Shown: positions 12,470 to 34,649, numbered from the stretch's first letter. The stretch: 34,649 bases of DNA from an uncultured Gammaproteobacteria bacterium (GCA_964415965.1 CAYQCK010000003.1:131426-166074), one strand, 5' to 3'. Numbers and translations are program-made. Notes: generated by a model not told the origin, from the letters alone.

Positions 12470-13933
12470 ATGGCCGATATGAACGAAACCGGAATCCTGG
12501 CCTGGAACACGGCCGTCCAAGCGGCCGGCAAGATCATCTCGACCGCCCTTGGCGTGGTCATGATCGCGGTCATGACCCGCCAACTCGGCCAGGACGGCTT
12601 CGGCATCTACACCACCGCCGTCAGCTATTTCCAGATCTTCGCCCTGCTCCTGGACCTCGGGATCAACGTCATGTACGTCCAGATGCTGGGCGAGAACAAG
12701 GGCGACCGCGCCGCCGAAGACCGCATCACGAGCGCCGTCTACACCTTCCGCCTCGTGACTTCCTTCGTCCTGCTCACCCTCGCGCCTGTCATCGCCCTGT
12801 TCCTCGGCTATCCCTGGGAACTCAAGCTGACCCTCTTCGCCATCTGGGGCGCATTCCTCTCGACCTGCCTCAACCAGATCGTCATCGGCACCCACCAGCG
12901 CCACCTCAAGATGCACATCGTGGCCGCCGCCGAGGTGGTGGGCCGCATCGTGATGGTCGGCGGCGTGGTCCTGGCCGCGGCCATGGGTTGGGGCATTGTG
13001 CCCATGGCCATCCTCATCTCGCTCGGGAATTTCGCCAACTTCCTGTTCAACTTCTTGGTGGCGCGCCGTTTCGCGAGTTTCGCCTGGAACTGGGACATGC
13101 CGTTCTGGAAGCGCCTGCTCAAGCGCACTTGGCCCATCGGCATCTCGATCATCTTCAATCTCGTCTATTACCGCGCCGATACCCTCATCCTGTCGTTCGT
13201 CCGGCCCATGAGCGAAGTCGGCCTCTACGGCGCCGCCTACCGCGTCCTCGAGATACTGATCGCCTTCCCCTTCATGTACGCCGGGGTGCTTTTGCCGCTC
13301 ATCGCCCACGCCTGGGCCCAGCGCGACCATGAGCGCTTCGACCGGCTCCTCCGCACGAGTTATCTGGCCATGATGCTGGTCGCCGCCCCGCTCGTGGCCG
13401 GCGCCTTGGTCGTGGGCACGCCGCTCATGCAAGCCGTGGCCGGACAGGATTTCACGGCCTCGGGAGACATCCTGAAGATCCTGACCTTGGCGGTAGGCGT
13501 GATTTTCCTGGGGACCGTCTCATCGCATGCCATCGTGGCTCTCGACGCCCAGCGCCGCACCGTGCCGCTCTACGTGGTCGTGGCGGTCCTGACACTGCTT
13601 GGTTATCTCGTCCTCATCCCCCGTTACGGCATGTACGCCGCGGCCTGGCTCACGGTCTTCTCCGAAGCTTGCGTGGCCATCGGTACGACCGTCATCTCAC
13701 TCAGCCGTTCGCGCACCCGCTTGCCCTGGATGCAGCTCGCCAAATGCCTGGCCGCCGCCGGCATCATGGCTCTCGTCATCTGGCCGTTGCGCGGGCTTTG
13801 GCTGCCGGCGACCATCGTCCTGGGCGGGCTGGTCTATTTCGGCTTCGTCATGATCTTCGGCGCCGTCACCGAGAAATCCATCAAGGAGCTGGTCTTCTTG
13901 CGCCAAGGCGCCCCGCCAGTCGACTCGCTTTGA
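12470..13933 (+). CDS. polysaccharide/O-unit flippase (Wzx-like, MOP superfamily)
   Basis: 487 aa, about 12-14 TM helices, with the N-terminal pattern typical of polysaccharide biosynthesis flippases. Confidence 0.7.
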   Translation: MADMNETGILAWNTAVQAAGKIISTALGVVMIAVMTRQLGQDGFGIYTTAVSYFQIFALLLDLGINVMYVQMLGENKGDRAAEDRITSAVYTFRLVTSFVLLTLAPVIALFLGYPWELKLTLFAIWGAFLSTCLNQIVIGTHQRHLKMHIVAAAEVVGRIVMVGGVVLAAAMGWGIVPMAILISLGNFANFLFNFLVARRFASFAWNWDMPFWKRLLKRTWPIGISIIFNLVYYRADTLILSFVRPMSEVGLYGAAYRVLEILIAFPFMYAGVLLPLIAHAWAQRDHERFDRLLRTSYLAMMLVAAPLVAGALVVGTPLMQAVAGQDFTASGDILKILTLAVGVIFLGTVSSHAIVALDAQRRTVPLYVVVAVLTLLGYLVLIPRYGMYAAAWLTVFSEACVAIGTTVISLSRSRTRLPWMQLAKCLAAAGIMALVIWPLRGLWLPATIVLGGLVYFGFVMIFGAVTEKSIKELVFLRQGAPPVDSL

Positions 13934-13952
13934 CCCCGCCTGACGGAAGGAT

Positions 13953-15200
13953 ATGGACTACCTGCCTTTCTTAGCCGCCTTAGCCTGGGGCATCCTGGCC
14001 TGGTCCAAGCCGCGCTGGGCCGTCTTGGCCTTGCCCGCGCTGCTGCCGGCTTACGTCTGGCGCACGCATCTCGGGCCTTTGCCGACCACGGCACTGGAAC
14101 TCCTGTTCGCGGCGACGGCCCTCGGCGCGACCTTAAAACTCGGATTGAAGCCCTGGCTCGACGGCTGGCGCTCCTCGGCCGCCTGGAGCTGGCCCATGCT
14201 GGCGTGGATCGCCGCAACGCTCCTCGCCGTCTGGATCGCCCCGGACCATCTGGCCGCGATGGGCCTCTGGCGCGCTTTCGTGCTCGAACCTCTCGCCTAC
14301 TTCATCTTGCTCAACGCTTTCCTTAAAAAAGACGAAGACCGCCGAATCGTCGTCCACGCGCTCGCCGCTTCGGCGATTTCAGTCTTCATCTGGTGCCTTA
14401 TCCAATATCTGACCGGCTACGGCATCCCGCACCCATGGGACACCGGCTTCCTGACCCGCCGCGCCACCGGCCCATTCCCCTTCCCCAACGCCGTCTCGCT
14501 CTACTGCGCCCCTCTGGCCGCTTTATTTTTTGGCCTAGCCCTCACCCGAGCTACCAGCCACCAGATACCAGCTACCAGAACCCTACTCTGGCTCGCTTTC
14601 GCCTCAGCGACGCTGGCCACGCTCCTCGCCAAAAGCGTCGGCGGCACGCTCGGCATCCTGGCGGCCGTGTTTCTCTGGCTCGTCTGGAACAAGCGGACCC
14701 GTTGGTTCGCGGTCGGGACGCTCGTCATCGCGGTCACATTCATCTTCGCCGTCCCGCAACTGCGCAACCCGACCGTCAAAACCCTGACCTTCGACGGCTG
14801 GTCGGGTCGGGTCCGCGTCTGGATGTGGCAGGAGACTTGGCAGATGCTCAAAGACCGGCCCATCTTCGGTGCCGGGTTGGGCGCCTATCCGGAAGTCTTC
14901 AAGCCCTACCACAAAAAGACGTTCATCGAGATTTTCCAGTATCCGCACAACATCGTCCTTAACCTCTGGAGCGAAACCGGCCTCCTCGGCCTGTTCGTCT
15001 TCGCATGGATCTTCGCGACCTGGATCCGGCTCGCGTGCCTTCCCCGAGCTACCAGCTACCAGCTACCAGCTATCCTCCTCCCCCTCCTCGCCGTCCTGGT
15101 CCAAGGCCTGGTCGACGTGCCGTATTTCAAGAACGATCTGGCCTTCACTTTTTGGATCCTGGCCGCGCTGGCCAGCCCCTTGCCGCAGACGAAGGCTTAA
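13953..15200 (+). CDS. O-antigen ligase/polymerase family (Wzy_C) membrane protein
   Basis: 415 aa polytopic protein with a large periplasmic loop near the C-terminal third, as in the WaaL/Wzy family. Contains two internal GCTACCA-type heptamer repeat tracts. Confidence 0.65.
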   Translation: MDYLPFLAALAWGILAWSKPRWAVLALPALLPAYVWRTHLGPLPTTALELLFAATALGATLKLGLKPWLDGWRSSAAWSWPMLAWIAATLLAVWIAPDHLAAMGLWRAFVLEPLAYFILLNAFLKKDEDRRIVVHALAASAISVFIWCLIQYLTGYGIPHPWDTGFLTRRATGPFPFPNAVSLYCAPLAALFFGLALTRATSHQIPATRTLLWLAFASATLATLLAKSVGGTLGILAAVFLWLVWNKRTRWFAVGTLVIAVTFIFAVPQLRNPTVKTLTFDGWSGRVRVWMWQETWQMLKDRPIFGAGLGAYPEVFKPYHKKTFIEIFQYPHNIVLNLWSETGLLGLFVFAWIFATWIRLACLPRATSYQLPAILLPLLAVLVQGLVDVPYFKNDLAFTFWILAALASPLPQTKA

Positions 15201-16716: not shown

Positions 16717-16726
16717 TTTAGCGACG

Positions 16727-16870
16727 CCCCACTTCGCAAGTGACCCCGGGGGTCTGGGGGTCCGCGCCAAGCGTGGTGGCAGGATAACTAACGTCGGCGA
16801 CACCGAGAGCGGCATCGCGGACCCCCAGGACTTTTGCTACTTTTGGTCACAAAAGTAGATAGGAGGGCTT
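16727..16870 (+). repeat. copy A of the conserved structured element (core only; lacks the 5' GGATTCCAGC...GCTGGAATGAC module)
   Basis: CACTTCGCAAGTGAC...GGGGGTCCGCG...GACACCGAGAGCGGCATCGCGGACCCCC...CTACTTTTGGTCACAAAAGTAGATAGGAGGGCTTT. Its 3' end overlaps the stop codon of the convergent HD gene. Confidence 0.85.
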
Positions 16871-17785
16871 TCACTCTCTGATCATCGCCTTGGTCAGCTC
16901 TTCTTCCGAAGATTCAAGCACCGCGATGACGCGTCGATAGTCTTCTTTGGACTTGTCAGGCAAATCTTTCTGTCCGTCCACGATTTTCCGCAGTTGCGCG
17001 ATGGCGCCGGCGTGATCCAGCCCGCCGCGGCCACGGAACGCCTGGTACTTGTCGATGACGGCCAAAACCCCGTACCTCTCCATGAGTTCCAGGACCTTTG
17101 AACCGGGATGGATATCATCCAAGGGCACACGGGCCGGGTTCCGTCCCTCCAGGATGTGGTGCGTCGCGGCGATGACGACGACTTCGTCGTCTATCGCCCC
17201 GCCGCGGTTGCGCTGCAGCACTTCATACGTCCAGTCGGCATGGTCGCGCCAGAACTCCAACATCGGTTTGGTCTCGACATCCACGCCCAGCTCCTGGGCC
17301 AGCACCGACCTGATGCCGACGGGATCCCGCGTTTCCGTCTCACGCATGAACTCGGCGACCGTCTTCGGGACCGGCTTGCCGCCGACCGTCCTGAACGGAT
17401 TGAACGGCATCTTGGGCGTGGCGAACAGCGTCTTGATGGCCGCCCGCAAGGCTGGCGACTTGGTTTCCGGACCAGACTTCCCGATGTCGTGCAGCAGGGC
17501 GCAAAGCATCAGCTTTTCACGCGTCATGCCCCGGATGTCGAGCTTGGGCCAGATTGCCCCGACCATCCGCGCCATGCAGATCGCGTCCTCCAGGTGTTCC
17601 CCCGTCTCGATTAGGCGTTCCCGCAACTCCGGACGTTCCTCCAGCCTGAAGTCCAACCCCAGCTTGGCGACCTGCTCCAATACGCGTTGCCTGGCGGCTT
17701 CCTCCGGAGGCGTTTCGGACGGCATGGGCATTCTCGGTTCAGGCATACTTGGGCTATAGGATAGCCGTCCCAGGGCATTTGGCAA
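16871..17785 (-). CDS. HD-domain phosphohydrolase
   Basis: LLHDIGK, the HD motif, with further conserved His/Asp (ATHHILEG). Confidence 0.65.
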   Translation of the reverse strand: MPNALGRLSYSPSMPEPRMPMPSETPPEEAARQRVLEQVAKLGLDFRLEERPELRERLIETGEHLEDAICMARMVGAIWPKLDIRGMTREKLMLCALLHDIGKSGPETKSPALRAAIKTLFATPKMPFNPFRTVGGKPVPKTVAEFMRETETRDPVGIRSVLAQELGVDVETKPMLEFWRDHADWTYEVLQRNRGGAIDDEVVVIAATHHILEGRNPARVPLDDIHPGSKVLELMERYGVLAVIDKYQAFRGRGGLDHAGAIAQLRKIVDGQKDLPDKSKEDYRRVIAVLESSEEELTKAMIRE

Positions 17786-19062: not shown

Positions 19063-19095
19063 CCCCTCCCCCTCACCGGGGAGGGGTTTTCGTTT
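19063..19095 (+). terminator. intrinsic terminator, + strand
   Basis: CCCCTCCCC-ctcacc-GGGGAGGGG followed by TTTTCGTTT. Confidence 0.7.
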
Positions 19096-19101
19096 GCCCA
19101 G

Positions 19102-19331
19102 CCATGAACTCCAGCTGGAGCTTACCCCAGCCACCGAGCCGGGGCTGGAATGACAGGTGGGTTAGTTGGGTCGGTTGGGTTAAAGAGTCCCACTTCGCAA
19201 GTGACACGGGGGACCGGGGGTCCATGCTAAGCGTGGCGCACAGGATAACAGACGTCGGCGACACCGAGAGCGCATCATGGACCCCCGGAACTTTTGCTAC
19301 TTTTGGTTACAAAAGTAGATAGGATGGCTTT
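19102..19331 (+). repeat. copy B of the conserved structured element (full length, with 5' module)
   Basis: CCATGAACTCCAGC-[hairpin]-GCTGGAATGACA, a GT-rich spacer, then core CACTTCGCAAGTGAC...GATAGGATGGCTTT. Confidence 0.85.
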
Positions 19332-21083: not shown

Positions 21084-21298
21084 TGGATTCCAGCTAGAGT
21101 CCACCCTGGCCACCGAGCCGGGGCTGGGATGACAGGACAAGGAAGCGAAAGAACCTCGTTTCGCAAGTGACCACGGGGGTCTGGGGGTCCGCGCCAAGCG
21201 TGGTGGCAGGATAACTAACGTCGGCGACACCGAGAGCGGCATCGCGGACCCCCAGGACTTTTGCTACTTTTGGTCACAAAAGTAGATAGAAAGGCTTT
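21084..21298 (+). repeat. copy C of the conserved structured element
   Basis: TTGGATTCCAGC-[hairpin]-GCTGGGATGACA...CGTTTCGCAAGTGACC...GATAGAAAGGCTTT. Confidence 0.85.
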
Positions 21299-21305
21299 CA
21301 ATTTT

Positions 21306-21520
21306 ATGACCAACCATGGATTCCAGCTTTCGCTGGAATGACACGTGGGTTAGTTGGGTCGGTTAGGTTAAAGAGTCCCACTTCGCAAGTGACAAGGGGG
21401 ACCGGGGGTCCGCGCCAAGCGTGGTACGCAAAAACGCAAACGCCCGCGACACCGAGAGCGGCATCGCGGACCCCCGGAACTTTTGCTACTTTTGGTTACA
21501 AAAGTAGAGAGAAGGGCTTT
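21306..21520 (+). repeat. copy D of the conserved structured element, in tandem with C
   Basis: ATGACCAACCATGGATTCCAGC-tttc-GCTGGAATGACA...CACTTCGCAAGTGAC...GAGAGAAGGGCTTTT. Confidence 0.85.
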
Positions 21521-21537
21521 TGCCGACAATATAGATA

Positions 21538-21570
21538 AAGCCGCGGAAACAAGTGTCTCCGCGGCTTTGC
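21538..21570. terminator. bidirectional intrinsic terminator
   Basis: AAAGCCGCGGAAACAAGTGTCTCCGCGGCTTT with a T-run on both strands. It ends the - gene 21590..21940 and any + transcript covering C-D. Confidence 0.7.
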
Positions 21571-22134: not shown

Positions 22135-23823
22135 TCACTTGCAGACGTCAGGATGCCTGGCGCAGTACGCGTCCAGGCCGGGGTTGCCCGAGCAGTTGCC
22201 GTTAGGGCAGTTCCGGACCACGACCGGAGGGGTCGTCGAGGTGGGCGGGGGCGCCACGCTCTTGTCCGGGACCTTGACCAGCACTTCCTGGCTCAGCTCG
22301 GTCTCGCCCGAAGCGTAGACCGCAGCCACGCGGTAAGCGTAGGTCGTGCCCGCGACCACCGTCGCGTCGTCGTAGTGGGTGACGCCGTTGGCCAGCGCGT
22401 TGAACGCCGTCCAATTCGTCTCGCCCACTGCCCGGCGCTCGTAACGGTAGCCCTTGGCTGCCTTCGGGATCTCGGGGTAGGTCAGCCTGACCTTGCCGTC
22501 GACGATGTTCGCCTGGGGCGCGAACATCTTCGAGAGCGAAGTGCCTTCCTTCAGGTTGAAGGTGTCGGCCTTGCCCCACGAGAAGATCGTGATGCACAGG
22601 CTGCCGATGGCCAGGAACATCATGAGGATGAACGACGCGGCCAGCAGCTGGCGGGCGCGCCGCGGGGCTCCCGTGGCGTCCTCGTCCGGCCAGCACATCC
22701 AGCCGACGAACCCGGTGAACAGGGCGCCGCAGAGCGCCGCGTACCACGGGAACCCGACGAACTTCTTGTCGCCGATGCCGAGGACCCACTTGATGGCGCC
22801 GATGGCCACGTCCACGATGCCGCCCAGGAGCGCGCCGATCTGGATGACCAGAGCGTCGAACTTGACCTGCAGCGGAGGGAAGAAGACCACGAGCGCGAGG
22901 AGCACGAGGAGCGCGTACCCGGCGTACACCAGGGAGCGCGCCGCCCGCTGCCGCCAGCTGAGCGTGTCGATGCCGTTGTTCTCCGCGTTCTCGAAGGAGA
23001 GGTAGGAGAAGATCCCGGCCAGCGTCGTCAGTACGAGCACCGACGGGAAGGGCATGAGCACGCCGATGGCGAGGACCGGCAAGAGCGCCGAATTGATCCG
23101 CGCTTTGGCCCGCTTGATGGCCGGTTTGAACATCTCCTGGTCGGCCAGGTTGATGTCCACGTTCGCCAGGCCCCTGAGGCCGGCCGTGATGAGCGTCTTC
23201 GCGATGCTCACGATGGCGTTGCTCGAGCCTTCGGCGAAGTCCACGCCCAGCTTGGCCATGTGCGCCACCAGGTCCACGACCATGAACAGCACTTCGCGGG
23301 CCATCAGGATGTACACCACCCCGAGGACGGCCAGCATGCGCGCGTCCATGAGCGGAGCCAGGTTGACCGGATCGGCGACCACGTTCCCGACCGCCAGATG
23401 CGCGGCCAGGAAGAACCAGACGCCGAGCGAGAGCAGGCCGAGGAATGAAGCCGAAATCACGGTCATGACCGAGAAGTCGTCCAGCGGACGGAGTCCGTTC
23501 ACGACAATCCAGGCCGAGAAACCGCTGGCGATCAGCAGCCCGACGATCCACGCCGACTGCGGCACGGTCGTACCGAGCGCGAGGAGCATGGCGCCGAAGA
23601 CGCCGACGAACAGCACGCCGACCACGACCCAGCCGATCCGGCGGAACGCCGGAGCGATGAGCGTGTCGTACGCCAGTCCCGCCAGGTCGACGAGCGCCTG
23701 GCCGGTCGCGGCGAACATGTTGCCGATGGCCGTCAGGAGCGCGCCGCCGCCCAGGAACTGGACGACCGCCACGAAGCCGACGAGCACGACGATCGAAAGC
23801 AATACCACTACCATGAGCTGCAT
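22135..23823 (-). CDS. VirB6/TrbL-like polytopic membrane protein with C-terminal FN3-like domain and Cys-rich tail
   Basis: About 10 TM helices across 430 aa, then a soluble C-terminus (TYPEIPKAAKGYRYERRAVGETNWTAF...YAYRVAAVYASGETELS) and CPNGNCSGNPGLDAYCARHPDVCK. Start trimmed to the ATG at 23823. Confidence 0.45.
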   Translation of the reverse strand: MQLMVVVLLSIVVLVGFVAVVQFLGGGALLTAIGNMFAATGQALVDLAGLAYDTLIAPAFRRIGWVVVGVLFVGVFGAMLLALGTTVPQSAWIVGLLIASGFSAWIVVNGLRPLDDFSVMTVISASFLGLLSLGVWFFLAAHLAVGNVVADPVNLAPLMDARMLAVLGVVYILMAREVLFMVVDLVAHMAKLGVDFAEGSSNAIVSIAKTLITAGLRGLANVDINLADQEMFKPAIKRAKARINSALLPVLAIGVLMPFPSVLVLTTLAGIFSYLSFENAENNGIDTLSWRQRAARSLVYAGYALLVLLALVVFFPPLQVKFDALVIQIGALLGGIVDVAIGAIKWVLGIGDKKFVGFPWYAALCGALFTGFVGWMCWPDEDATGAPRRARQLLAASFILMMFLAIGSLCITIFSWGKADTFNLKEGTSLSKMFAPQANIVDGKVRLTYPEIPKAAKGYRYERRAVGETNWTAFNALANGVTHYDDATVVAGTTYAYRVAAVYASGETELSQEVLVKVPDKSVAPPPTSTTPPVVVRNCPNGNCSGNPGLDAYCARHPDVCK

Positions 23824-23881: not shown

Positions 23882-24769
23882 CTACCATTCCCGCCGAGCT
23901 TTCGCCCGACGGGCTGCGATCTTGGAGCGGACACCGTCGACCGCTCCCGTGAGGCTGTCCACTCCAGTGGCCATCTCCTTCAGGGCCGCATCAGGCTTGT
24001 CGACGAGCTCCTCAGCCTTCTTGCCGAAGGCGCCGAAGAACTTCTTCTTGGCCTTCTCGAGCGTGCCCATGATGCCTCCGGCTTCCGGCGGCTTGATGTC
24101 GCCGTAGGCCAGCTTGAGGTGGGCGATCCAGGTGTCCTTGTCGAGGTCGATGAGGGTGAGCATGAGGTTGAAAAGTTCCCACCTGTTGCCCACGATCTTT
24201 GCCCGATACGTCTCGAACGCCTTCTTGTCCTCTTCGGACAGGCTGGCGTGCTTGGCTTGGAACGCCCTCTGCCGCGCGACCTCGAGCGAGAGCAGCGCCG
24301 AGCTGAACGTCGCGCTCTCGAGCAGGAGACTCCGGGCCTTTTCCTTGGCCTCGGCCGTCGCCTTGCTCAGGTCCTGCTCCGTGATCTTGCCCTTGGTCCG
24401 CTGGGCATGTCCCAGCCCGTGGATGAAGCTATCGATCGCCTCGTCCAACAGGCTGATGTACTCCTCGGGGACGCCGAGCGACTTGAGGCCGGTGCGGACA
24501 AGCTTGGGGTTCTGGATGAGCGCCGCGGCTCCGGCTGTCACCAGGCCTGCGGCATGGGTGCCGATGAGGCTCTCGACCGCGTCGAGGCCGCGCGACATCC
24601 ACGGCTGGTTGGCCACTCGGCCGCCCAACCCGCCCGCCACGACCTGCACCAGGTTCGAGAAGAACCTGACGTAGAACCGCGGATCGGACGCCATATCCTT
24701 GGCTTCTTCCTTGCCCTTCTTGCCGCGCCTGCCGCCACCAGAGTCATCCCTGCCCGTATCTTCTGGCAT
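23882..24769 (-). CDS. hypothetical protein (295 aa), first gene of the VirB6-like operon
   Basis: GGAGAAGGA RBS upstream of the trimmed start. Helical, Lys/Ala/Glu-rich C-terminal half. Confidence 0.5.
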   Translation of the reverse strand: MPEDTGRDDSGGGRRGKKGKEEAKDMASDPRFYVRFFSNLVQVVAGGLGGRVANQPWMSRGLDAVESLIGTHAAGLVTAGAAALIQNPKLVRTGLKSLGVPEEYISLLDEAIDSFIHGLGHAQRTKGKITEQDLSKATAEAKEKARSLLLESATFSSALLSLEVARQRAFQAKHASLSEEDKKAFETYRAKIVGNRWELFNLMLTLIDLDKDTWIAHLKLAYGDIKPPEAGGIMGTLEKAKKKFFGAFGKKAEELVDKPDAALKEMATGVDSLTGAVDGVRSKIAARRAKARREW

Positions 24770-25021: not shown

Positions 25022-25213
25022 CCATGGATTCCAGCTTGCACTGTAATGACAGCGGGGGGGCGGAAGAGTCACACTTCGCAAGTGACCTCGGGGGTCTGGG
25101 GGTCCGCGCCAAGCGTAGCGGCAAGATGACTGACGTCGGCGACACCGAGAGCGGCATCGCGGACCCCCAGGACTTTTGCTACTTTTGGTCACAAAAGTAG
25201 ATAGGAGGGCTTT
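25022..25213 (+). repeat. copy E of the conserved structured element (degenerate 5' module)
   Basis: CCATGGATTCCAGCTTGCACTGTAATGACA...CACTTCGCAAGTGACC...GATAGGAGGGCTTT. Confidence 0.85.
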
Positions 25214-25220
25214 CTGTTTT

Positions 25221-25458
25221 ATGGCCAACCATGGATTCCAGCTGGAGTTTACCCCGGCCACCAAGCCGGGGCTGGAATGACGGATGGATCAGGTGGGTTA
25301 GGTGGGTCAAAGAGCCCCGTTTCGCAAGTGACACGGGGGACCGGGGGTCCATGCTAAGCGTGGCGCACAGGATAACCCGCATTCGCGACACCGAGAGCGC
25401 ATCATGGACCCCCGGAACTTTTGCTACTTTTGGTCACAAAAGTAGATAGGATGGCTTT
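25221..25458 (+). repeat. copy F of the conserved structured element, in tandem with E
   Basis: ATGGCCAACCATGGATTCCAGC-[hairpin]-GCTGGAATGAC...CGTTTCGCAAGTGAC...GATAGGATGGCTTT. Confidence 0.85.
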
Positions 25459-25469
25459 ATGCCTTTTAC

Positions 25470-27071
25470 CTACAGCCTAACTTCAAAAGTCACGCCATCT
25501 TCAGTCTCCTTAAGTTTCAGAAACCGAGGATCCGATTCGATGAGCTTCAGGAATTGCCTATGGATTTCACGCTTGCTAATGAAAACGAATCTCGAGTCGA
25601 GCCGATCATGGATCAATTCCCAAGCTTGCTCCTTGGTCGTGCTCGTCATGCCCCAGGTGAGGTTCCTGACATCGTCCGACAAAGTCGAGGACGCGACGTA
25701 GAGGAAAGTCGGGTCCATGCCTGAGACATAACGCAATCGGTCATCGGCCGCGAACAGCATCGGGAACTCGTCCCAGCTCGAATGGAACACGCGGTCTCCC
25801 GGTTGCGCCAACTTCGCGACGGCTTCAAAGCTGCCGCGATAAGCTGTGTCCGGATAGTTCGCCGGGTGCAGGCTCCGCCAGATGCCTTGGACCTCGCGCC
25901 CGGCCAAACCAAGCGCCAAAACGCCCACAAGAATCAGCAAGGCCGATAGCCCGCGCTTCCCCAACACCCTGAGGCTATCCTTGGCCTCGGCCGCCAAACG
26001 GCGCGCGTCGACCATGCTCCAGATTGCGCCGCACCAGATGGCCACGGCCGGCGCCAGATATTCGGTCGTGCGTCGGCTCTTGAGGGTCAAGGCGAAAAAA
26101 GCCGCCACTAATAAGCCAGAAGACAGGCATAAAGCCGCCTTCTCGCGGTCCGCCGGACGGCGCGGCGCCAGCGCCAGCCCGGCCAGGCCCAGCAGCAAAT
26201 CGATGATCCAGGGCGCATACGCCGTGACCAAATGCGTGGCTTCAGGCGGCAGCCACTCGGTGCCCATGACAACCTTGCCCATGGGCGTGCCCAGGCCGAT
26301 GATGAAAACCTGCGTCCAGCTGAACAAGAAATTCTCCGGGAAATTCGGATGGACAAGCATCCCGAACAGTCCCCCGGCCAGGACCGCCGCGACCTCCTTC
26401 CACAGCCCGTGCTTCAAGGCCTGGACGAACCGCATCCCGCCCAAATCCCTGTCGGCGACCAAACGACCGAAGGCCAGGACCGTCGCCGCACCGGCCAGAT
26501 AGGGCCAACCGCCGTGCGACAACGCATAGGTCGCCGCGATGGCGAACGCCGCCCACGGCCGCCGTCGCCACACGGCCAGGATGCCGAGCAGGAACAACGC
26601 GATAGCCAAGGGCGAAGCCTTGCCCAACAGGATCCGCGTCACGAACGGCTGGGTCACGGCCAACACGGTCACCCAAATCCCCGGCCTCCAGACCCCGAAC
26701 GCGCGCAAAACGGCATACGCCGCCGCCAGGCAGGCCGCAGCCAAAGCCACGCTCGCGATGCGCAATCCCTGGAATGGGCCGAAAACCGCCGTGGCCGGCG
26801 CGACCAGGACATGGAACAGGAAATGCAGGTCCGCGTAATGCTGTCCGACGGACGTCAGATCAAGCCAGGGAAATGTATTCAACGGCCCATGCGCCCAAAG
26901 CAACGCCGACGTTTTGGCGTGGTAAAAAGCATCCGGGTCATTGAACCCGTCCCAAGGCATCAGGACCGAGAAATACGCCAGGCCGAACAAAAAAACCCCG
27001 ACAGCCCTCTTCAAACCATCGACTCTCGACTCACGAATACATGCCTTGATCACCCCCGAACTATAACACAA
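25470..27071 (-). CDS. polytopic membrane protein, probable GT-C-type glycosyltransferase (ArnT/PMT-like) with C-terminal soluble domain
   Basis: About 12 TM helices over 400 aa plus a ~130 aa C-terminal domain, last gene of the galU-pilin operon. Family call is tentative. Confidence 0.4.
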   Translation of the reverse strand: MCYSSGVIKACIRESRVDGLKRAVGVFLFGLAYFSVLMPWDGFNDPDAFYHAKTSALLWAHGPLNTFPWLDLTSVGQHYADLHFLFHVLVAPATAVFGPFQGLRIASVALAAACLAAAYAVLRAFGVWRPGIWVTVLAVTQPFVTRILLGKASPLAIALFLLGILAVWRRRPWAAFAIAATYALSHGGWPYLAGAATVLAFGRLVADRDLGGMRFVQALKHGLWKEVAAVLAGGLFGMLVHPNFPENFLFSWTQVFIIGLGTPMGKVVMGTEWLPPEATHLVTAYAPWIIDLLLGLAGLALAPRRPADREKAALCLSSGLLVAAFFALTLKSRRTTEYLAPAVAIWCGAIWSMVDARRLAAEAKDSLRVLGKRGLSALLILVGVLALGLAGREVQGIWRSLHPANYPDTAYRGSFEAVAKLAQPGDRVFHSSWDEFPMLFAADDRLRYVSGMDPTFLYVASSTLSDDVRNLTWGMTSTTKEQAWELIHDRLDSRFVFISKREIHRQFLKLIESDPRFLKLKETEDGVTFEVRL

Positions 27072-27119
27072 CCCCCGCTGGTTGGCGGGGGCTGCATCTG
27101 TTCGTTGCGCAACGAACTC

Positions 27120-27503
27120 CTATCCCTGTCCGGTCGCGTTGATGAGCGAACCCATCACGAAACTCGAGATGGCGTAAGCCGCGACGATGATTATCAAGCC
27201 GATGATGGCCTGGGTAAGCATGTCTTTGGCCTTCTTGACCTTGCTGTCGTCGCCCTGCGCCGTCATCCAGAGGAAACCGGCGTAAAGCGTCAGGACGAGG
27301 AAGACGATGCCCAGGAAGCCGAGGAAAATATTGATCAGGTTACCGATCATCTCGGTCAGCCCTCCTTCAGTTTTAATCCCGGCCGTCTCACCGACTTTTC
27401 CGACCATCTCCTGCCCTTTCTGGAACGGATTCTCAGCCAGGACCTGCAGCGGCGCCATCAGCGCCAAGCCGGCTCCGGCGATGTATGTCTTTAGGTTCTT
27501 CAT
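27120..27503 (-). CDS. VirB2/TrbC-like (T4SS-pilin-like) small membrane protein, paralog F
   Basis: Signal peptide, short ectodomain, TM1 ending LYAGFLWMTAQGDDSKVKKAKDM, then TM2 LTQAIIGLIIIVAAYAISSFV. Confidence 0.6.
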   Translation of the reverse strand: MKNLKTYIAGAGLALMAPLQVLAENPFQKGQEMVGKVGETAGIKTEGGLTEMIGNLINIFLGFLGIVFLVLTLYAGFLWMTAQGDDSKVKKAKDMLTQAIIGLIIIVAAYAISSFVMGSLINATGQG

Positions 27504-27538
27504 AACGATATTAGCTTCGTGGCTCACGTTTATGCTTA

Positions 27539-27961
27539 TTAGCCTCCTTCTCCGCCTCCGCCGCCGACATCGCCCGTGCCTCCGCTTGTCGCGTTGCCGA
27601 GCGAGCCGATGACGAAATCCGCGATCGCATAGGCCGCGACGATGATGACCAAGCCGATGACGGCCTGGGTTATCATGTCCTTGGCTTTCTTGACCTTGGA
27701 CTCGTCTCCCTGCGCCGTCATCCAGAGGAAACCGGCATAGATCAGGATGGCCAACAGGACCAACCCGAGCAGCCCCAGGGCTTGGCCGATCAAGGAACCG
27801 ACGATCCGCGTCAGATCCGTGGGCCCTTGGTCGTACCCGGACGGTCTGGCCGCAGCGCTCAAGCCTGTCCGCATCGAATCCGCCGGGGCGGCTACGGCTG
27901 GCAAAGCCAAAACCGCGGCCAAACCTACGGCCAAACTCGTGCAAGCGATGAATTTCCTCAT
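27539..27961 (-). CDS. VirB2/TrbC-like small membrane protein, paralog E (Gly-rich tail)
   Basis: IYAGFLWMTAQGDESKVKKAKDMITQAVIGLVIIVAAYAIADFV; start at MRKFIAC (an alternative ATG lies at 27970). Confidence 0.6.
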   Translation of the reverse strand: MRKFIACTSLAVGLAAVLALPAVAAPADSMRTGLSAAARPSGYDQGPTDLTRIVGSLIGQALGLLGLVLLAILIYAGFLWMTAQGDESKVKKAKDMITQAVIGLVIIVAAYAIADFVIGSLGNATSGGTGDVGGGGGEGG

Positions 27962-27996
27962 GTGATGCATAACGATGGTTACAAGCGGACCGCGGG

Positions 27997-28395
27997 CTAG
28001 GCGTCCTGCGTCGCGGTGATCAAACGTGAAATGACGAAGCTGGTGATCGCCCATGCCGACAAGATGATGGCCAAACCGATAATGCCTGAAACGATAAGTT
28101 TCTTGGCTTCTCCGGTCTTTTCATCGTTCCCTCCGGCGATCATCCATTTGAAACCGCCGAGCAGCACGATGACCACGGCGACGATGCCGAGGAAACCGAG
28201 CGCGACGTTGATGATGCGGGCTGCGGTCTGGCGGACATCGCCTGAACCGAGCTTGATCGTCGACTGGATGGCCCCTACGCCCAGATCGTTCTGGTTGAGG
28301 TCATCGGCGGCGAACACCACGGCCGGGGCGGCCAAAACGGCGGCCAGACCGAGGGTCGTGGCGAAGGCTGCAGCTTTCTTAAGACGTTGCGTCAT
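27997..28395 (-). CDS. VirB2/TrbC-like small membrane protein, paralog D
   Basis: Signal peptide, then LLGGFKWMIAGGNDEKTGEAKKLIVSGIIGLAIILSAWAITSFV. Confidence 0.55.
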   Translation of the reverse strand: MTQRLKKAAAFATTLGLAAVLAAPAVVFAADDLNQNDLGVGAIQSTIKLGSGDVRQTAARIINVALGFLGIVAVVIVLLGGFKWMIAGGNDEKTGEAKKLIVSGIIGLAIILSAWAITSFVISRLITATQDA

Positions 28396-28492
28396 GTCAT
28401 GTGTCACCTCCTTTCGGTTTGGGATACACGCTTTACGTGTCGGTGGGAAGTTTAGCAGATGCGCCGTCCGGAGTCGAATCCCCAAGCGGCCT

Positions 28493-28954
28493 TCAGGGCA
28501 CGGCTTGGCCGGTCGTTTCCGGGTTTCCGGCCTGGCTCGTCGGGGCGTTGTTCGGGGGCGTCGCGCCGGACAGCGTGCTCCCGAGTCTCGTGATGATGTT
28601 GAACACCAAGACGTAAGCCAACGACACGATCGCCAGGCCGATGACCGCGTTCTTGAGCGTCGTGGTCGCCTTCTTCACCCGGTCGCTTTCGCCTGACGCC
28701 GTCATGTACATGACTCCGCCCCAGATGAACATGGCCAAAAACAGCGAGCCGACCAAGGGCAGTACCCAACTGATGATGCGGGCCACGAGTTCGGGCACGC
28801 TCTTGCCGCCCATCGGGTCCTGCAGGCCGTAACTCTGGAAACCGGCCGGCGCCGGGCTCGGTTGCGACGCCGCCGAGACGGGCAGGGTGATGGCCAGGAC
28901 GACCAGGCAAGCGACAACGGCCGAAACGGTCAAAAGGGTTTGTTTGTTTTTCAT
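28493..28954 (-). CDS. VirB2/TrbC-like small membrane protein, paralog C
   Basis: FIWGGVMYMTASGESDRVKKATTTLKNAVIGLAIVSLAYVLVF, with a Pro/Thr-rich C-terminal tail. Confidence 0.55.
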   Translation of the reverse strand: MKNKQTLLTVSAVVACLVVLAITLPVSAASQPSPAPAGFQSYGLQDPMGGKSVPELVARIISWVLPLVGSLFLAMFIWGGVMYMTASGESDRVKKATTTLKNAVIGLAIVSLAYVLVFNIITRLGSTLSGATPPNNAPTSQAGNPETTGQAVP

Positions 28955-28961
28955 AGCGGTG

Positions 28962-29657
28962 TCACGAGCCTTGCGGCACGGCGTAGCCCGTCGTCTCCGG
29001 CGGTGGCTTCGGGACATCTGAAGTCAAAGCCTTGAAGAAGAAGTCCACCAGGACATAGGCGAACATGATGAGCGCCAAACCGATGATGGCGTACTTCATC
29101 GTGTCCGTCGCCTGCTTCACCCGGTCGCTCGAACCGGCCGTCATGTACATGATGCCGGCGTAGATGAACACGATCAGGGCCAAGGCCCCGACCATGCCGA
29201 TGAACGCGGCCACGAACCGGCCGATAAGGGCGTTCAACGTCACGCAATCGGCCTTGCCCGTCGGACACAGCGGATTCGCCAACGTCATCGGCGAACCGGC
29301 CGATACGCCCGCCGAGGCCTGCGTGGCCGAAGCGGCGCGCGCCAGACAGGTCGGATCATTCGGGTTCTTCTTGCACAGGTCTTCGATAAGGGGCTCGAGG
29401 GCGGGACCAACCGCTTTCTGCGCCTGTTTGTTCTTGCAGCATGCCGCATTTACGGTCTTGACGCACGTTCCGAGCTTATCCTGGTTCATCTCGCAATCGT
29501 CGCTCACCAGGTTGCAGCTCCCGCCCTGCTTCGTGCAATCCTGGGGAGTCATGGCCGCGGCCGACTCCGCTTGGACAAAAAACAGGCTAAACGCGACCAT
29601 AAGACCGGTAATGGCCGGCAGGATTTTCTTGTATGTTTGCTTGGCCATATGGTTCAT
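28962..29657 (-). CDS. VirB2/TrbC-like membrane protein, paralog B, with ~150 aa Cys-rich ectodomain
   Basis: 12 Cys in the ectodomain, then IYAGIMYMTAGSSDRVKQATDTMKYAIIGLALIMFAYVLVDFF. ATGA overlap with paralog A. Confidence 0.55.
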   Translation of the reverse strand: MNHMAKQTYKKILPAITGLMVAFSLFFVQAESAAAMTPQDCTKQGGSCNLVSDDCEMNQDKLGTCVKTVNAACCKNKQAQKAVGPALEPLIEDLCKKNPNDPTCLARAASATQASAGVSAGSPMTLANPLCPTGKADCVTLNALIGRFVAAFIGMVGALALIVFIYAGIMYMTAGSSDRVKQATDTMKYAIIGLALIMFAYVLVDFFFKALTSDVPKPPPETTGYAVPQGS

Positions 29658-30043
29658 TGGCTAATCACTATCCCGGCCACGTAGCGGACGATGGTCCAGG
29701 CGCTCATCACGATGAGCATGCCGATGGCCCCGCCTTTCATGGCCTGCGTCCCCTTCTGCACCCAGTCGGCCTTGCCGAACGACAGCAGATACCGGGCTCC
29801 GCCGTAGACGAAGGTAGCGAAGAACAGGGCGGCCGAAATCTCCATCAGCATGTTGCCGAACGCCGCCGCCGTCCTGACGATGTCATCCAGGCTGCAGTCC
29901 CCGGAGGCCATGCATTTTTTCTGCACACCTGTCTTATCCATTTCGGCCGTCAGCGACTGCGCCCAAGCCGCGGTCGGCAAGAGCCACGCGCCGAGCGTGG
30001 CGGCCAATGCGGCCAAAGGACGTTTTAGGTTCGGCATAAACAT
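29654..30043 (-). CDS. VirB2/TrbC-like small membrane protein, paralog A
   Basis: Signal peptide, then FVYGGARYLLSFGKADWVQKGTQAMKGGAIGMLIVMSAWTIV. Its ATG overlaps the stop of the upstream SBP gene (TGATG). Confidence 0.5.
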   Translation of the reverse strand: MFMPNLKRPLAALAATLGAWLLPTAAWAQSLTAEMDKTGVQKKCMASGDCSLDDIVRTAAAFGNMLMEISAALFFATFVYGGARYLLSFGKADWVQKGTQAMKGGAIGMLIVMSAWTIVRYVAGIVISQ

Positions 30044-31494
30044 CAGAAATTGTAGGGTATGGTCTGCGAAATCTTGCTGGCCGCGTTGCTGAAGACCTGC
30101 GAGAGTTTCTCCGGATCCGTGACCCGGACGTCATCGATCAGGGTGACGAGCGCGTCCTCCATGGTCTTCGGGTCGTTCCCTTTATACCAGGAGCGCGCCG
30201 TCAGGACCTGCGACGAGAACACCCCGATCTGCTCGTTCTCGAGCTGGCCGGGCAATTGGGACTTCAGGGCCGCCGGCCGCAGCGCCACATCCAGGTATTT
30301 CTTGTTCTCATCCGGCTTGCGCATGAAATTCAGCAGGTTCCATGACAGGTCCACGGATTTGGTCTTCTTGGACACGGTCCAGGCCCAATAGTTGGCGTAG
30401 TTCACGACCGGATTGCCCGTTATCTGCGGCATCTTGGCCATGGCCAGGTTCAGCTTGGGCGCGCGGGCGCGGATGACCGGCAGATGGTAGCTGTAGCCGA
30501 AAAAGAACGCGACCTTGCCCTGGATGAAGGCGTCGAGCGAATTCGGCTGCTGGTCGTTCCAGGTATAGACGTCTTTCCCGGGATTGGCGAAGTCGGTGTA
30601 GAAAGTCAGGGCTTGGTACGCCGGAGGCGTGTCGCGTTGGCCGGACAGGGCGGCCGGTATCTGGTTGAAGGTCGGCGAACCGTCGGCGGCGGCCATCTCG
30701 GCGCCGTTCTGCATCATGAGCGCCGCCACGATGTCCGGCGAGCGTTCGACGTTCTTGCCCGTGCCCAACGCGGCCCCAGCCTGCAGGATGGCTCCGGTAT
30801 CGTCGGTTTTGACCAGCTTCTTGACCGCGGTCTGGAAATCGTCCCAGTTCTCCGGGATGTTCGCGATGCCCGCCGCGTTCAGCAAGTCCTTGTTGACGTA
30901 CATGGCCAGCGTATCCACCGACATCGGCACAGCCACCACGCGCTGCTGCCAATCCTTCTTTTCCTTGTCGGTCGACACATTGACGGTCCGGATGAAGTCG
31001 TTCGCCACCACATCCGGGTAATCGCTCTTGAATTGGCGGATGGAGACCGTCGGTTCGGTCTGGAGCGTCCAGACCAGCTCTTTCTTGAGCGTGCCCTGGA
31101 CGGACTGCGACGCCGTTTTGGTCTGGAGCGGCATGGGCAGGAGCTTGCTCATGTATTTGCCGACCCAGGTGTTGTGGATCATGAAGATGTCCGGTCCGCG
31201 GTCCTCGGCCAGCGCGTTCAGGAGCTCGTTCTCGTATTCCTCCAGGCGGAAACGCCGGTAGTTCAACGTCGCGTTGGGGTGGAGCTTGCGGTAATCGCTC
31301 AATATCGCCTGATACGCGTCGTTGTCGTCGATCACGCCCCAGATGTTGATCTCCGCCTTCTTGGAAGCGGCCTGGGTCGCGGCATCCGGCCCCTTGGTGC
31401 AGCCGGCGGCCAAAGTCGCGGTCGCCACCAAAGCCCACATGAGCTTCAGGGCTAATGAACGGGTTTTCTTGGAGTTTTGCATACCTGACGCCAT
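30043..31494 (-). CDS. lipoprotein extracellular solute-binding protein (family-1 SBP, sugar type)
   Basis: Lipobox LAAGC and MalE-like SBP features (NIWGVIDD..., ...FFGYSYH...). Co-transcribed between galU and the pilin-like genes. Confidence 0.65.
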   Translation of the reverse strand: MASGMQNSKKTRSLALKLMWALVATATLAAGCTKGPDAATQAASKKAEINIWGVIDDNDAYQAILSDYRKLHPNATLNYRRFRLEEYENELLNALAEDRGPDIFMIHNTWVGKYMSKLLPMPLQTKTASQSVQGTLKKELVWTLQTEPTVSIRQFKSDYPDVVANDFIRTVNVSTDKEKKDWQQRVVAVPMSVDTLAMYVNKDLLNAAGIANIPENWDDFQTAVKKLVKTDDTGAILQAGAALGTGKNVERSPDIVAALMMQNGAEMAAADGSPTFNQIPAALSGQRDTPPAYQALTFYTDFANPGKDVYTWNDQQPNSLDAFIQGKVAFFFGYSYHLPVIRARAPKLNLAMAKMPQITGNPVVNYANYWAWTVSKKTKSVDLSWNLLNFMRKPDENKKYLDVALRPAALKSQLPGQLENEQIGVFSSQVLTARSWYKGNDPKTMEDALVTLIDDVRVTDPEKLSQVFSNAASKISQTIPYNF

Positions 31495-31495
31495 T

Positions 31496-32368
31496 TTACA
31501 CTTTCGACAGCTTTTTAACGAGTGCCCGCGCTTCTTGGCGCATATCCGGTCTGTTCAGGGCGATTTCCAGGTTGGCCTTCAACCAGCCGATCTTGGAGCC
31601 GGTGTCGTAATACGTCCCTTCGACAAGCTTGGCGTACACCGGACGCTTCTTCATGAGCCCAAAGATGGCGTCCAGCAGGACCAGCTCCCCGCCATGCCCC
31701 TTCTTGGTCTTTTCGATGGCCTCGAAGATGTCCGGCGTCAGGACATAGGCCCCGAGCGAGGCCAAGCGCGACGGCGCCTTGTCCGGTCCCGGTTTCTCGA
31801 CCACTCCTTTGAGCTGGTACACGCCTTTTTCGACCTCGGCCGCCGGGTCGATGATGCCGTAACGCTTCGTGTCCTCATCCCCCACCTTGGTGGTGAACAG
31901 CACCGGATCCCGGTATTTCTCGAACACCTCGATCATCTGCTTGAGCCGTGGCTTCTTGCTGACCATGAAATCGTCGCCGAACAGCACGGCGAACGGTTCG
32001 TCGCCGATGACTTCCCTGGCGTTCAGCACCGGGGTGGCGTTGCCGTACGGCCCTTTCTGGCGGATATAGATGAAATTCGCCATGTGCCCGATGGCCCGGA
32101 TCTCCTCGAGCTGCTCCTTTTTGCCCGTGGCCTTAAGCCAGGCCTCAAGCGTCTGGTTGTCGTCGAAATGGTCCTCGACCGCCCGTTTGCTGATATTCGT
32201 GACCAAGATGATGTCCGTGATGCCCGAGGCGACCGCCTCCTCGACCACGTATTGGATGACCGGCTTGTCGATGACCGGCAGCATCTCTTTGGGCATGGCT
32301 TTGGTCGCCGGCAAGAACCGCGTCCCGAATCCCGCCACCGGGATGACCGCTTTGCGTACTTTTTGCAT
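31496..32368 (-). CDS. galU: UTP--glucose-1-phosphate uridylyltransferase
   Basis: KAVIPVAGFGTRFLPATKAMPKEMLPVIDKPVIQYVVEEA is the canonical GalU N-terminus; 290 aa. Confidence 0.9.
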   Translation of the reverse strand: MQKVRKAVIPVAGFGTRFLPATKAMPKEMLPVIDKPVIQYVVEEAVASGITDIILVTNISKRAVEDHFDDNQTLEAWLKATGKKEQLEEIRAIGHMANFIYIRQKGPYGNATPVLNAREVIGDEPFAVLFGDDFMVSKKPRLKQMIEVFEKYRDPVLFTTKVGDEDTKRYGIIDPAAEVEKGVYQLKGVVEKPGPDKAPSRLASLGAYVLTPDIFEAIEKTKKGHGGELVLLDAIFGLMKKRPVYAKLVEGTYYDTGSKIGWLKANLEIALNRPDMRQEARALVKKLSKV

Positions 32369-32428
32369 ATACCTGGATTATACCCGTCCCGAAGGCAGAT
32401 AAAAAAGACCGCCGATTTTTGCCGGCGG

Positions 32429-34539: not shown

Positions 34540-34649
34540 GGGCCTTTAGCTCAGCTGGCTAGAGCGTCCCGATAGGCATCGGGAAGGTCATGGGTTCAAG
34601 TTCACAACAGCTGCTATATTTCGGGCCTTTAGCTCAGCTGGCTAGAGCG
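34540..34649 (+). other. tandem tRNA-like units (83-nt period; second copy truncated by the window end), non-canonical or pseudo-tRNA
   Basis: GGGCCUUUAGCUCAGCUGGCUAGAGCG (canonical acceptor and D-arm) and GGGUUCAAGU (T-loop-like). No matching 3' acceptor strand, and the anticodon arm has an 8-nt loop. Confidence 0.35.

Follow-up and report, generated by a model that had tools for sequence, protein, structure and literature searches.

A tandem array of six VirB2-like pilin genes next to a solute-binding lipoprotein gene in an Uhrbacteria-like Patescibacterium

Results

Organization of the locus

The window analysed here is a stretch of 34,649 nucleotides from an assembly deposited as an uncultured Gammaproteobacteria bacterium (GCA_964415965.1, CAYQCK010000003.1:131426-166074), and its central feature is a series of six tandem genes, here called A to F, for proteins resembling the VirB2 pilins of type IV secretion systems (T4SSs). 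The series occupies positions 27120-30043 on the minus strand (Table 1), an arrangement on which the list of open reading frames (ORFs), the sequence itself and an independent gene call on the source contig, a JGI metagenome contig of 63.5 kb, agree. All six products pass the threshold of the T4SS_pilin family (PF18895), and the six tandem genes of shared architecture described in the initial annotation of this DNA are confirmed. The array is preceded by galU and by a gene for a lipoprotein of the solute-binding protein (SBP) type, and followed by a gene for a membrane protein of the GT-C type that resembles the catalytic subunits of oligosaccharyltransferases (OSTs).

The nearest genomic relatives of the lipoprotein are found in metagenome-assembled genomes of Candidatus Uhrbacteria (77-64% identity), and the next ones in Falkowbacteria, Buchananbacteria, Kerfeldbacteria and other lineages of the Parcubacteria group. 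The host is therefore placed among the Patescibacteria (the Candidate Phyla Radiation, CPR), and the DNA is, to judge from its sequence, that of an Uhrbacteria-like Patescibacterium, a bacterium of the ultrasmall type.

The stop codon of the SBP gene and the start codon of pilin A have one base in common (TGATG), and pilins A and B overlap by 4 nt (ATGA), so that both the coordinates and the sequence bear out the translational coupling that had been read at these junctions. The gene ychF lies upstream of galU on the same strand as the array, and the hairpin between the two is probably the upstream boundary of the operon. The GC-rich hairpin with a T-rich tail after F, which spans 27061-27092 and gave a weak match at 27069-27084 in a hairpin scan, is likely a leaky terminator. 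Based on these two hairpins, the likely transcription unit consists of galU, the lipoprotein gene and the six pilin genes, and the GT-C gene may form a separate unit. Of the single operon proposed earlier, the part from galU to F is thus retained, while its extension into the GT-C gene is doubtful. We also observed a perfect 18-nt palindrome, GTTCGTTGCGCAACGAAC, at 27099-27116, between the F stop codon and the GC-rich hairpin; this palindrome could bind a protein or belong to the terminator. The entire palindrome and hairpin region is kept in the strain L002, which is 97.9% identical and was used for the comparison of codons in Table 1.

Table 1. Features of the locus, with codon differences from strain L002 given as synonymous/non-synonymous.
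Feature	Coordinates	Strand	Codon differences	Remarks
Terminator-like hairpin between ychF and galU	32409..32428	-		7-pair stem with 6 GC pairs, then TCTTTTTTAT
galU (UTP-glucose-1-phosphate uridylyltransferase)	31496..32368	-	1/0	First gene of the unit; TIGR01099, PF00483
SBP_bac_1 lipoprotein gene	30043..31482	-	11/0	PF01547; lipobox LAAGC
Pilin A, 129 aa	29654..30043	-	4/4	PF18895 39.5 bits; C-x6-C pair in ectodomain
Pilin B, 231 aa	28962..29657	-		PF18895 45.1 bits; ectodomain of ~110 aa with 10 Cys
Pilin C, 153 aa	28493..28954	-		PF18895 43.1 bits; Pro/Thr-rich C-terminal tail
Pilin D, 132 aa	27997..28395	-	3/0	PF18895 40.8 bits
Pilin E, 140 aa	27539..27961	-	12/13	PF18895 38.9 bits; sequon N-A-T in tail
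Pilin F, 127 aa, last gene of the array	27120..27503	-	11/4	PF18895 43.1 bits; tail GSLINATGQG
Palindrome, GC-rich hairpin and T-rich tail, 3' of the F stop codon	27061..27116	-		From reading of the sequence
STT3/AglB-like GT-C membrane protein, 514 aa	25470..27014	-	27/19	Downstream of F

Architecture and family membership of the pilins

According to the hydropathy analysis, each of the six proteins starts with basic residues, followed by a hydrophobic signal segment with a cleavage site of the A-x-A type. A variable region comes next, and the two-helix end consists of two hydrophobic segments of about 25-30 aa that are joined by a charged loop of 7-12 aa. This agrees with the signal peptide and the topology with two transmembrane segments in the initial annotation, and the ectodomain of pilin B is indeed Cys-rich as described there. 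The loop had been called Lys-rich; it is short, as stated, but its charge is mixed, with 1-3 K/R and 2-3 D/E residues. Five columns are invariant in an alignment of the six proteins, which are 17-46% identical to each other over the full length and 21-69% over the core (mean about 25%), with E and F as the closest pair.

The proteins score 38.9-45.1 bits against PF18895, for which the gathering threshold is 26.6 bits, and the match can therefore not be due to chance; the precomputed database annotation agrees. Among 144 related small ORFs linked to SBP genes in other genomes, 141 matched PF18895 and 32 matched the TrbC/VirB2 family (PF04956) at E<=0.01, the best of them at 7.5e-9. Pilins F and D were also compared with the NCBIfam model NF045849, which describes the Mbov_0395 pilin-like conjugal transfer protein: F passes the cut-off of 40 with 44.2 bits, and D falls below it with 34.4 bits. 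The only plasmid match of the F core is a member of the NF045849 family on a Pontibacillus megaplasmid (NZ_CP062975.1). In view of the matches to PF18895 and NF045849 and those of the relatives to TrbC, homology between the array proteins and conjugative pilins is supported at the level of the family by these sequence comparisons, in line with the VirB2/TrbC-like identity assigned to them earlier. The AlphaFold2 (AF2) model of pilin D is a helical hairpin (residues 52-131), for which the block means of the predicted local distance difference test (pLDDT) are mostly 85-93 in the core. Given the family scores and the conservation in 71 genomes, the possibility of spurious ORFs was rejected.

On the Pontibacillus megaplasmid (L089 11701-18015), the pilin-like gene is located 4 kb upstream of a VirB4-like ATPase of the CD1110 family. 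To our knowledge, it is commonly stated that T4SSs of Gram-positive bacteria have no VirB2 homologues, a view with which this gene pair sits uneasily.

Outside the window, the first "pilin" after the lipoprotein gene is in some related genomes a giant protein of about 900-1300 aa (L079 11175-15104, L036 1688-4438, L043 2908-5631), in which the two-helix core is confined to the C-terminus; the core may thus serve to anchor and display bulky outer domains. At least 15 loci encode a first pilin whose second helix leads into a module of about 55 aa that is rich in Cys (six residues) and ends in CC followed mostly by K, P or R, often as CCKxK. Such tails on the first or a nearby pilin are seen in L020, L021, L023-L025, L028-L032, L036, L039, L040 and L043. 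We considered whether the Cys-rich N-terminal region of pilin B corresponds to this module, but a hidden Markov model (HMM) of the tail had no match to B, and the two are merely Cys-rich outer regions.

Age, order and unequal divergence of the array

We collected 76 related loci through homologues of the lipoprotein and searched their ORFs with an HMM of the six pilin cores. In about 25 Uhrbacteria-like genomes, the array consists of six or seven genes, and the best matches of the window paralogs follow their positions: the first four genes match the first, second, third and fourth genes, respectively, and the sixth matches the last. Pilin E is the exception, in that its core resembles the proteins at position 6. 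The E and F cores share 85% nucleotide identity across 149 nt (27588-27736 versus 27133-27281), far above any other pair of paralogs. Such similarity indicates gene conversion or a recent partial duplication, and in combination with the position-6 resemblance of the E core it points to gene conversion.

The paralogs have diverged to very different extents. In comparison to the closest genome (L013), the identity is 86% for D, 71% for F, 64% for A, 55% for E, 52% for C and 42% for B, and the corresponding values for YchF, GalU and the lipoprotein are 89%, 82% and 77%. Pilin D has more than 3000 homologues, and the best 120 clusters are all at least 73% identical and nearly all 127-135 aa long. 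The idea of rapidly diverging paralogs that provide subunit diversity, as put forward in the initial annotation, was not supported: positional orthologues exist in about 25 genomes, D is almost as conserved as YchF, and only B, C, A and E are fast, B most of all. The most variable gene relative to L002 is pilin E, with 91.3% nucleotide identity, and from E onward the divergence is raised in a block that resembles a recombination tract. Taken together, the comparisons argue that the array is old, fixed in gene order and not hypervariable. This pattern fits with six specialised subunits, of which D would be the strongly constrained core, and fits poorly with a pool of interchangeable variants.

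The lipoprotein and its pilin partner

GalU scores 332.1 bits against the TIGR01099 equivalog model (cut-off 326.8), and the lipoprotein matches the SBP_bac_1 family at E=5.9e-31 and has a lipobox, so that both identities read from the sequence were correct. The lipoprotein is under strong purifying selection, with 11 synonymous and no non-synonymous codon differences from L002.

In 71 of the 76 genomes, a pilin-core gene comes next after the SBP homologue on the same strand, with a median gap of 6 nt and a gap of <=150 nt in 65 of them; three of the five exceptions are cut by the end of a contig. In about half of the related loci, galU immediately precedes the SBP gene. Falkowbacteria-like genomes contain a single pilin after the SBP gene, and in two of them (L058, L062) one pilin is found beside the lipoprotein gene and a seven-gene array 4-7 kb further on, which shows that the pair and the array are separable. 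The conserved unit is therefore the lipoprotein with the first pilin. Since the loci were selected via the lipoprotein, the pairing means that the lipoprotein nearly always has a pilin partner, and not the converse.

Pfam scans were made for the likely genes of the window and for 7 kb past its high end (L001) and 8 kb past its low end (L091), about 50 kb in all. Within the window, they identified no ABC permease or ATPase adjoining the SBP gene; the only ABC genes seen nearby encode an ABC-2 exporter pair, which is located past the start of the window at a distance of more than 30 kb.

The downstream enzyme and the pilin sequons

The 514-aa protein encoded downstream of F has no match in Pfam (E<=5), in NCBIfam or in the PDB, the latter searched both by phmmer and with a profile of 112 sequences. 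However, its AF2 model (pLDDT 96.7, predicted template modelling score 0.94) has a GT-C membrane fold nearest to that of OST catalytic subunits, with an OST-type C-terminal globular domain of the small AglB type, and the top eight Foldseek matches are all STT3 subunits (E ~3e-8). The STT3/AglB-like fold agrees with the GT-C-like membrane protein proposed at this position. Invariant residues in the family include D26 and D28, which form a D26-P-D28 motif in the first external loop, as well as E253 and R315, and W414-D415 is nearly invariant within a segment S-W-D-E-F that recalls the WWDYG motif. One homologue bears the JGI name "asparagine N-glycosylation enzyme membrane subunit Stt3". We conclude from the predicted structure that the protein is probably a GT-C enzyme of the OST-like, protein-glycosylating type that belongs to an uncatalogued family, its precise activity being inferred.

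Exactly two N-x-S/T sequons occur among the six pilins, one in E (GSLGNATS) and the other in F (GSLINATG), both at the same place in the predicted extracellular tail straight after the second helix. In all 15 loci with an adjacent OST-like gene, the orthologue of the last pilin has a sequon N-[AVI]-[ST] at or beside the same spot (N-G-T in one case). Overall, 15 loci have both the gene and the sequon, 14 have neither, 5 have the sequon only and none has the gene only; in the tier of 49-58% lipoprotein identity, the corresponding numbers for both, neither and sequon only are 5, 4 and 1. The split within this tier hints at a joint loss on one or two occasions at least. Overall, the association is suggestive, and the co-occurrence of a conserved C-terminal N-x-S/T with the OST-like gene lends circumstantial support to the glycosylated filament proposed in the initial annotation.

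Glycosylation of bacterial conjugative pili is undescribed (Beltran et al., PMC9905601). A search for literature naming Patescibacteria together with oligosaccharyltransferase returned a single paper, on archaeal bundling pili to judge from its title. A Wzx-type flippase (Polysacc_synt) is encoded beside a Wzy_C/O-antigen-ligase-like protein at 12470-15200 on the plus strand, 12 kb from the array, and this pair could supply a lipid-linked glycan to the OST-like enzyme.

Neighboring genes and repeats

After the OST-like gene on the minus strand follow genes for a 295-aa helical protein (23882-24769) and for one of 562 aa that has about 10 membrane helices and ends in an Fn3-like domain (22135-23823). 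Their order is kept in the five closest genomes, and neither belongs to a Pfam or NCBIfam family. Intergenic repeats with two types of units (~184 and ~237 nt) are located at 16718-16901, 19095-19331, 21145-21550 and 25060-25458, one copy being placed between the OST-like gene and the next gene. The copies are 65-91% identical to each other and match no Rfam family; an Rfam scan of the window recovered two tRNAs and nothing else. A direct repeat of 110 nt lies across the high end of the window, with one copy at 34540-34649 and the other in the adjoining 110 nt (L001 7094-7202); the copies are 98% identical.

Discussion

A fixed set of pilins for a proposed secretion system encoded elsewhere

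We consider it likely that the locus is a chromosomal operon of an Uhrbacteria-like Patescibacterium that encodes six distinct, non-interchangeable pilins of the PF18895 family, which are assembled by a T4SS encoded elsewhere in the genome. By analogy with VirB2 and TraA, the pre-pilins would be exported by the Sec system and cut by signal peptidase, after which the pilins would rest in the membrane, their two termini facing outward and the short charged loop facing the cytoplasm. A VirB4-type T4SS may then extract the subunits to build a surface filament or a conduit that spans the envelope, and such a structure could serve contact with the host cell. Pilin D would be the bulk or core subunit and the other pilins minor, exposed components, with B, C and E presenting fast-evolving surfaces. 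The lipoprotein may partner physically with the first pilin, A, as a ligand-binding or anchoring protein. We also infer N-glycosylation of the pilins: the OST-like enzyme would modify the N-x-S/T on the exposed C-terminal tail of the final one or two pilins (E, F), possibly with glucose-derived sugars provided via GalU.

A bolder hypothesis is that the SBP, the VirB2-like pilins and the STT3/AglB-like enzyme form one surface module in Patescibacteria of the ABY1/Paceibacteria type, with a pilin N-glycosylated at its C-terminus and the SBP as the ligand-binding partner of the first pilin. We regard this hypothesis as possible but doubtful. If true, it would be the first case in Bacteria of a VirB2-type filament that is glycosylated and would give the SBP fold a new use, and N-linked protein glycosylation would reach a new bacterial phylum and a class of filaments for which it has no prior description (PMC9905601).

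Several observations weigh against the assembly of these pilins by a T4SS and against their glycosylation. None of VirB4, VirD4, VirB6 and VirB11 is encoded within the ~50 kb scanned around the array. The initial annotation had noted that the window holds no VirB4, VirD4 or VirB11 ATPase, which the Pfam scans confirm, and had pointed to the flanking genome as the place to look for them, where the additional 7 kb and 8 kb gave none. Across the 76 related loci, large ORFs (>=550 aa) with a Walker A motif number 15 within 10 kb of the SBP gene or up to the contig end; they encode SMC/RecN, FtsH, UvrA and ABC-F proteins, and none of them a T4SS ATPase. Since no such ATPase is nearby, it is solely homology and the literature that tie the array to a secretion machine. 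Of the two HMMER profiles named at the outset, PF18895 is passed by all six pilins, but PF04956, with a gathering threshold of 27.9 bits, is missed by all pilins in the window, the best scores being 18.8 bits for E and 16.2 bits for B. A search of PDB sequences with a profile of the six paralogs returned only noise, and Foldseek matched the model of pilin D to nonspecific helical hairpins and to no solved conjugative pilin; the best match was ATP synthase subunit c at an E-value of 0.5, the fold being too simple to discriminate. As for the enzyme, none of the 61 members of its family matches any Pfam family, glycosyltransferases and STT3 included, and its WWDYG motif is degenerate. Shared ancestry confounds the association of the OST-like gene with the sequon, and the position of the sequon directly after a membrane helix may leave too little distance from the membrane for an OST to act. 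Finally, we know of no pilus of this type that has been seen in these organisms.

The lack of a nearby ATPase also speaks for the main rival explanation, namely that the two-helix proteins are not pilus subunits but membrane partners of the lipoprotein in an unconventional uptake, receptor or anchoring complex without any T4SS ATPase. The SBP-then-pilin pair in 71 of the 76 genomes, with genes that overlap or nearly do so, is in line with such a complex, as are the lone pilin after the SBP gene in Falkowbacteria-like loci, the strong purifying selection on the SBP and the finding that no ABC permease or ATPase adjoins it in the window. However, the homology of the two-helix proteins to TrbC/VirB2 and to the pilin-like protein of a monoderm conjugation cluster speaks against this explanation, as does the homologous array of Southlakia, which is part of a T4SS cluster that is essential (Wang et al., 2023; PMC10633639). 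Furthermore, pilins are near virB4 in 1,135 of the 1,948 Patescibacteria assemblies that hold both, which means that about 40% keep them apart (Quinonero-Coronel et al., 2025; PMC12102498), and a distance from virB4 is therefore normal. We thus find it rather unlikely that the proteins serve the lipoprotein alone.

A different function for the array would be to hold interchangeable, rapidly diversifying variant cassettes that let the cell switch antigens or host range, a role that has been suggested for the multiple VirB2 copies in Bartonella and Anaplasma. It corresponds to the subunit diversity of the initial annotation and is also raised in the literature (PMC12102498). The low identity of 17-46% between paralogs, the fast ectodomains of B and C, the gene conversion between E and F and the clustering of strain differences in these two pilins (13 non-synonymous codons in E) could all be explained in this manner. 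Yet every position is matched by an orthologue of its own in about 25 genomes, D is among the most conserved proteins of the locus, and the genes form one tightly packed unit that shows neither silent copies nor invertible elements. The strain divergence that is raised from E into the OST-like gene includes many synonymous changes and is for this reason better explained as an imported recombinant segment. Variant switching is accordingly improbable in our opinion. It is more improbable still that the genes belong to an integrated conjugative element (ICE) and serve DNA transfer, to which the family name and the homology to the pilin-like protein of Mycoplasma ICEs might point. A relaxase, a coupling protein and an integrase are, like VirB4, not encoded within the ~50 kb scanned around the array, the GC content is uniform, and relaxases are rare in Patescibacteria (PMC12102498). 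An ICE was rejected because no transfer gene was found and because the synteny with the housekeeping genes ychF and galU is stable over many genera. We therefore favor the hypothesis of six dedicated pilins assembled by a T4SS from another part of the genome.

A large part of bacterial diversity belongs to the Patescibacteria, which live attached to other cells. In the one species that has been tested, the T4SS that bears the pilins is essential (PMC10633639). Our findings indicate that in a large group of Patescibacteria the pilin set is a fixed six-part kit, rather than a variable one, which is tied to a lipoprotein of the sugar-binding type and placed beside an uncatalogued OST-like enzyme with a conserved sequon. 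The fixed kit, the tie to the lipoprotein and the OST-like neighbor offer testable handles on how a structure that touches the host is built and decorated.

Comparison with known systems

Arrays of this kind have been described before. A search of 3,035 Patescibacteria genomes with PF18895 and PF04956 identified 441 arrays of 2-11 VirB2-like pilin genes in 383 assemblies, with a mean identity of 25% (Quinonero-Coronel et al., 2025; PMC12102498). In Southlakia epibionticum ML1, an essential series of six predicted pilins is located inside a T4SS cluster (Wang et al., 2023; PMC10633639), and a review from 2025 depicts the Southlakia-type cluster as six VirB2-like pilins that are conserved in structure and divergent in sequence (PMC12857230). 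Since pilin arrays are already described in Patescibacteria, the core finding is of a known kind. Our array shares with these systems the PF18895 family, the phylum, the tandem layout, the number of genes, six being within the range of 2-11, and the identity of about 25%. It differs in that it lies neither within nor close to a virB4 cluster, that it is coupled to an SBP lipoprotein gene and galU, and that an OST-like GT-C gene follows. Links to an SBP, galU or an OST-like GT-C enzyme are unmentioned in both studies (PMC12102498; PMC10633639), and the gene context, with the lipoprotein partner, the OST-like neighbor and the conserved sequon, appears to be unreported. The conservation of positions and the one very slow paralog are further additions to what has been described for the Patescibacterial arrays.

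The TrbC/VirB2/TraA pilins of diderm bacteria (PF04956) have the signal peptide, the two-helix hairpin, the short charged loop and the small size in common with the proteins studied here, along with a weak profile similarity. In contrast to them, the genes in the window are below the family threshold, the host is a monoderm, six different subunits are encoded, and the N-terminal ectodomains reach greater lengths, with a maximum of about 110 aa in this array and of over 1000 aa in related proteins. The VirB3, VirB4, VirB6 and other mating-pair-formation genes with which TrbC/VirB2 pilins are expected to be co-encoded were not found in the window or its extensions, nor among the large Walker A ORFs within 10 kb, or up to the contig end, in the 76 related loci. 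The Mbov_0395/MMCAP2_0565 protein (NF045849), known from Mycoplasma ICEs and elements in Firmicutes, is represented by a model that F passes and D nearly does, but its members are single genes in mobile conjugation clusters, whereas the array is chromosomal, with six genes and no ATPase nearby.

The STT3, AglB and PglB OSTs, considered together with the N-glycosylated pilins and archaellins of archaea, resemble the downstream enzyme in the GT-C fold, the AglB-type C-terminal domain and the presumed substrate, a filament subunit with an N-x-S/T sequon; the enzyme differs in having no sequence match to OSTs or to the Pfam STT3 family and in its degenerate WWDYG. The VirB2 paralogs of Bartonella and Anaplasma are likewise divergent copies that lie side by side, but these are thought to serve antigenic variation, whereas the copies in the Uhrbacteria-like array are old, ordered and unequally constrained.

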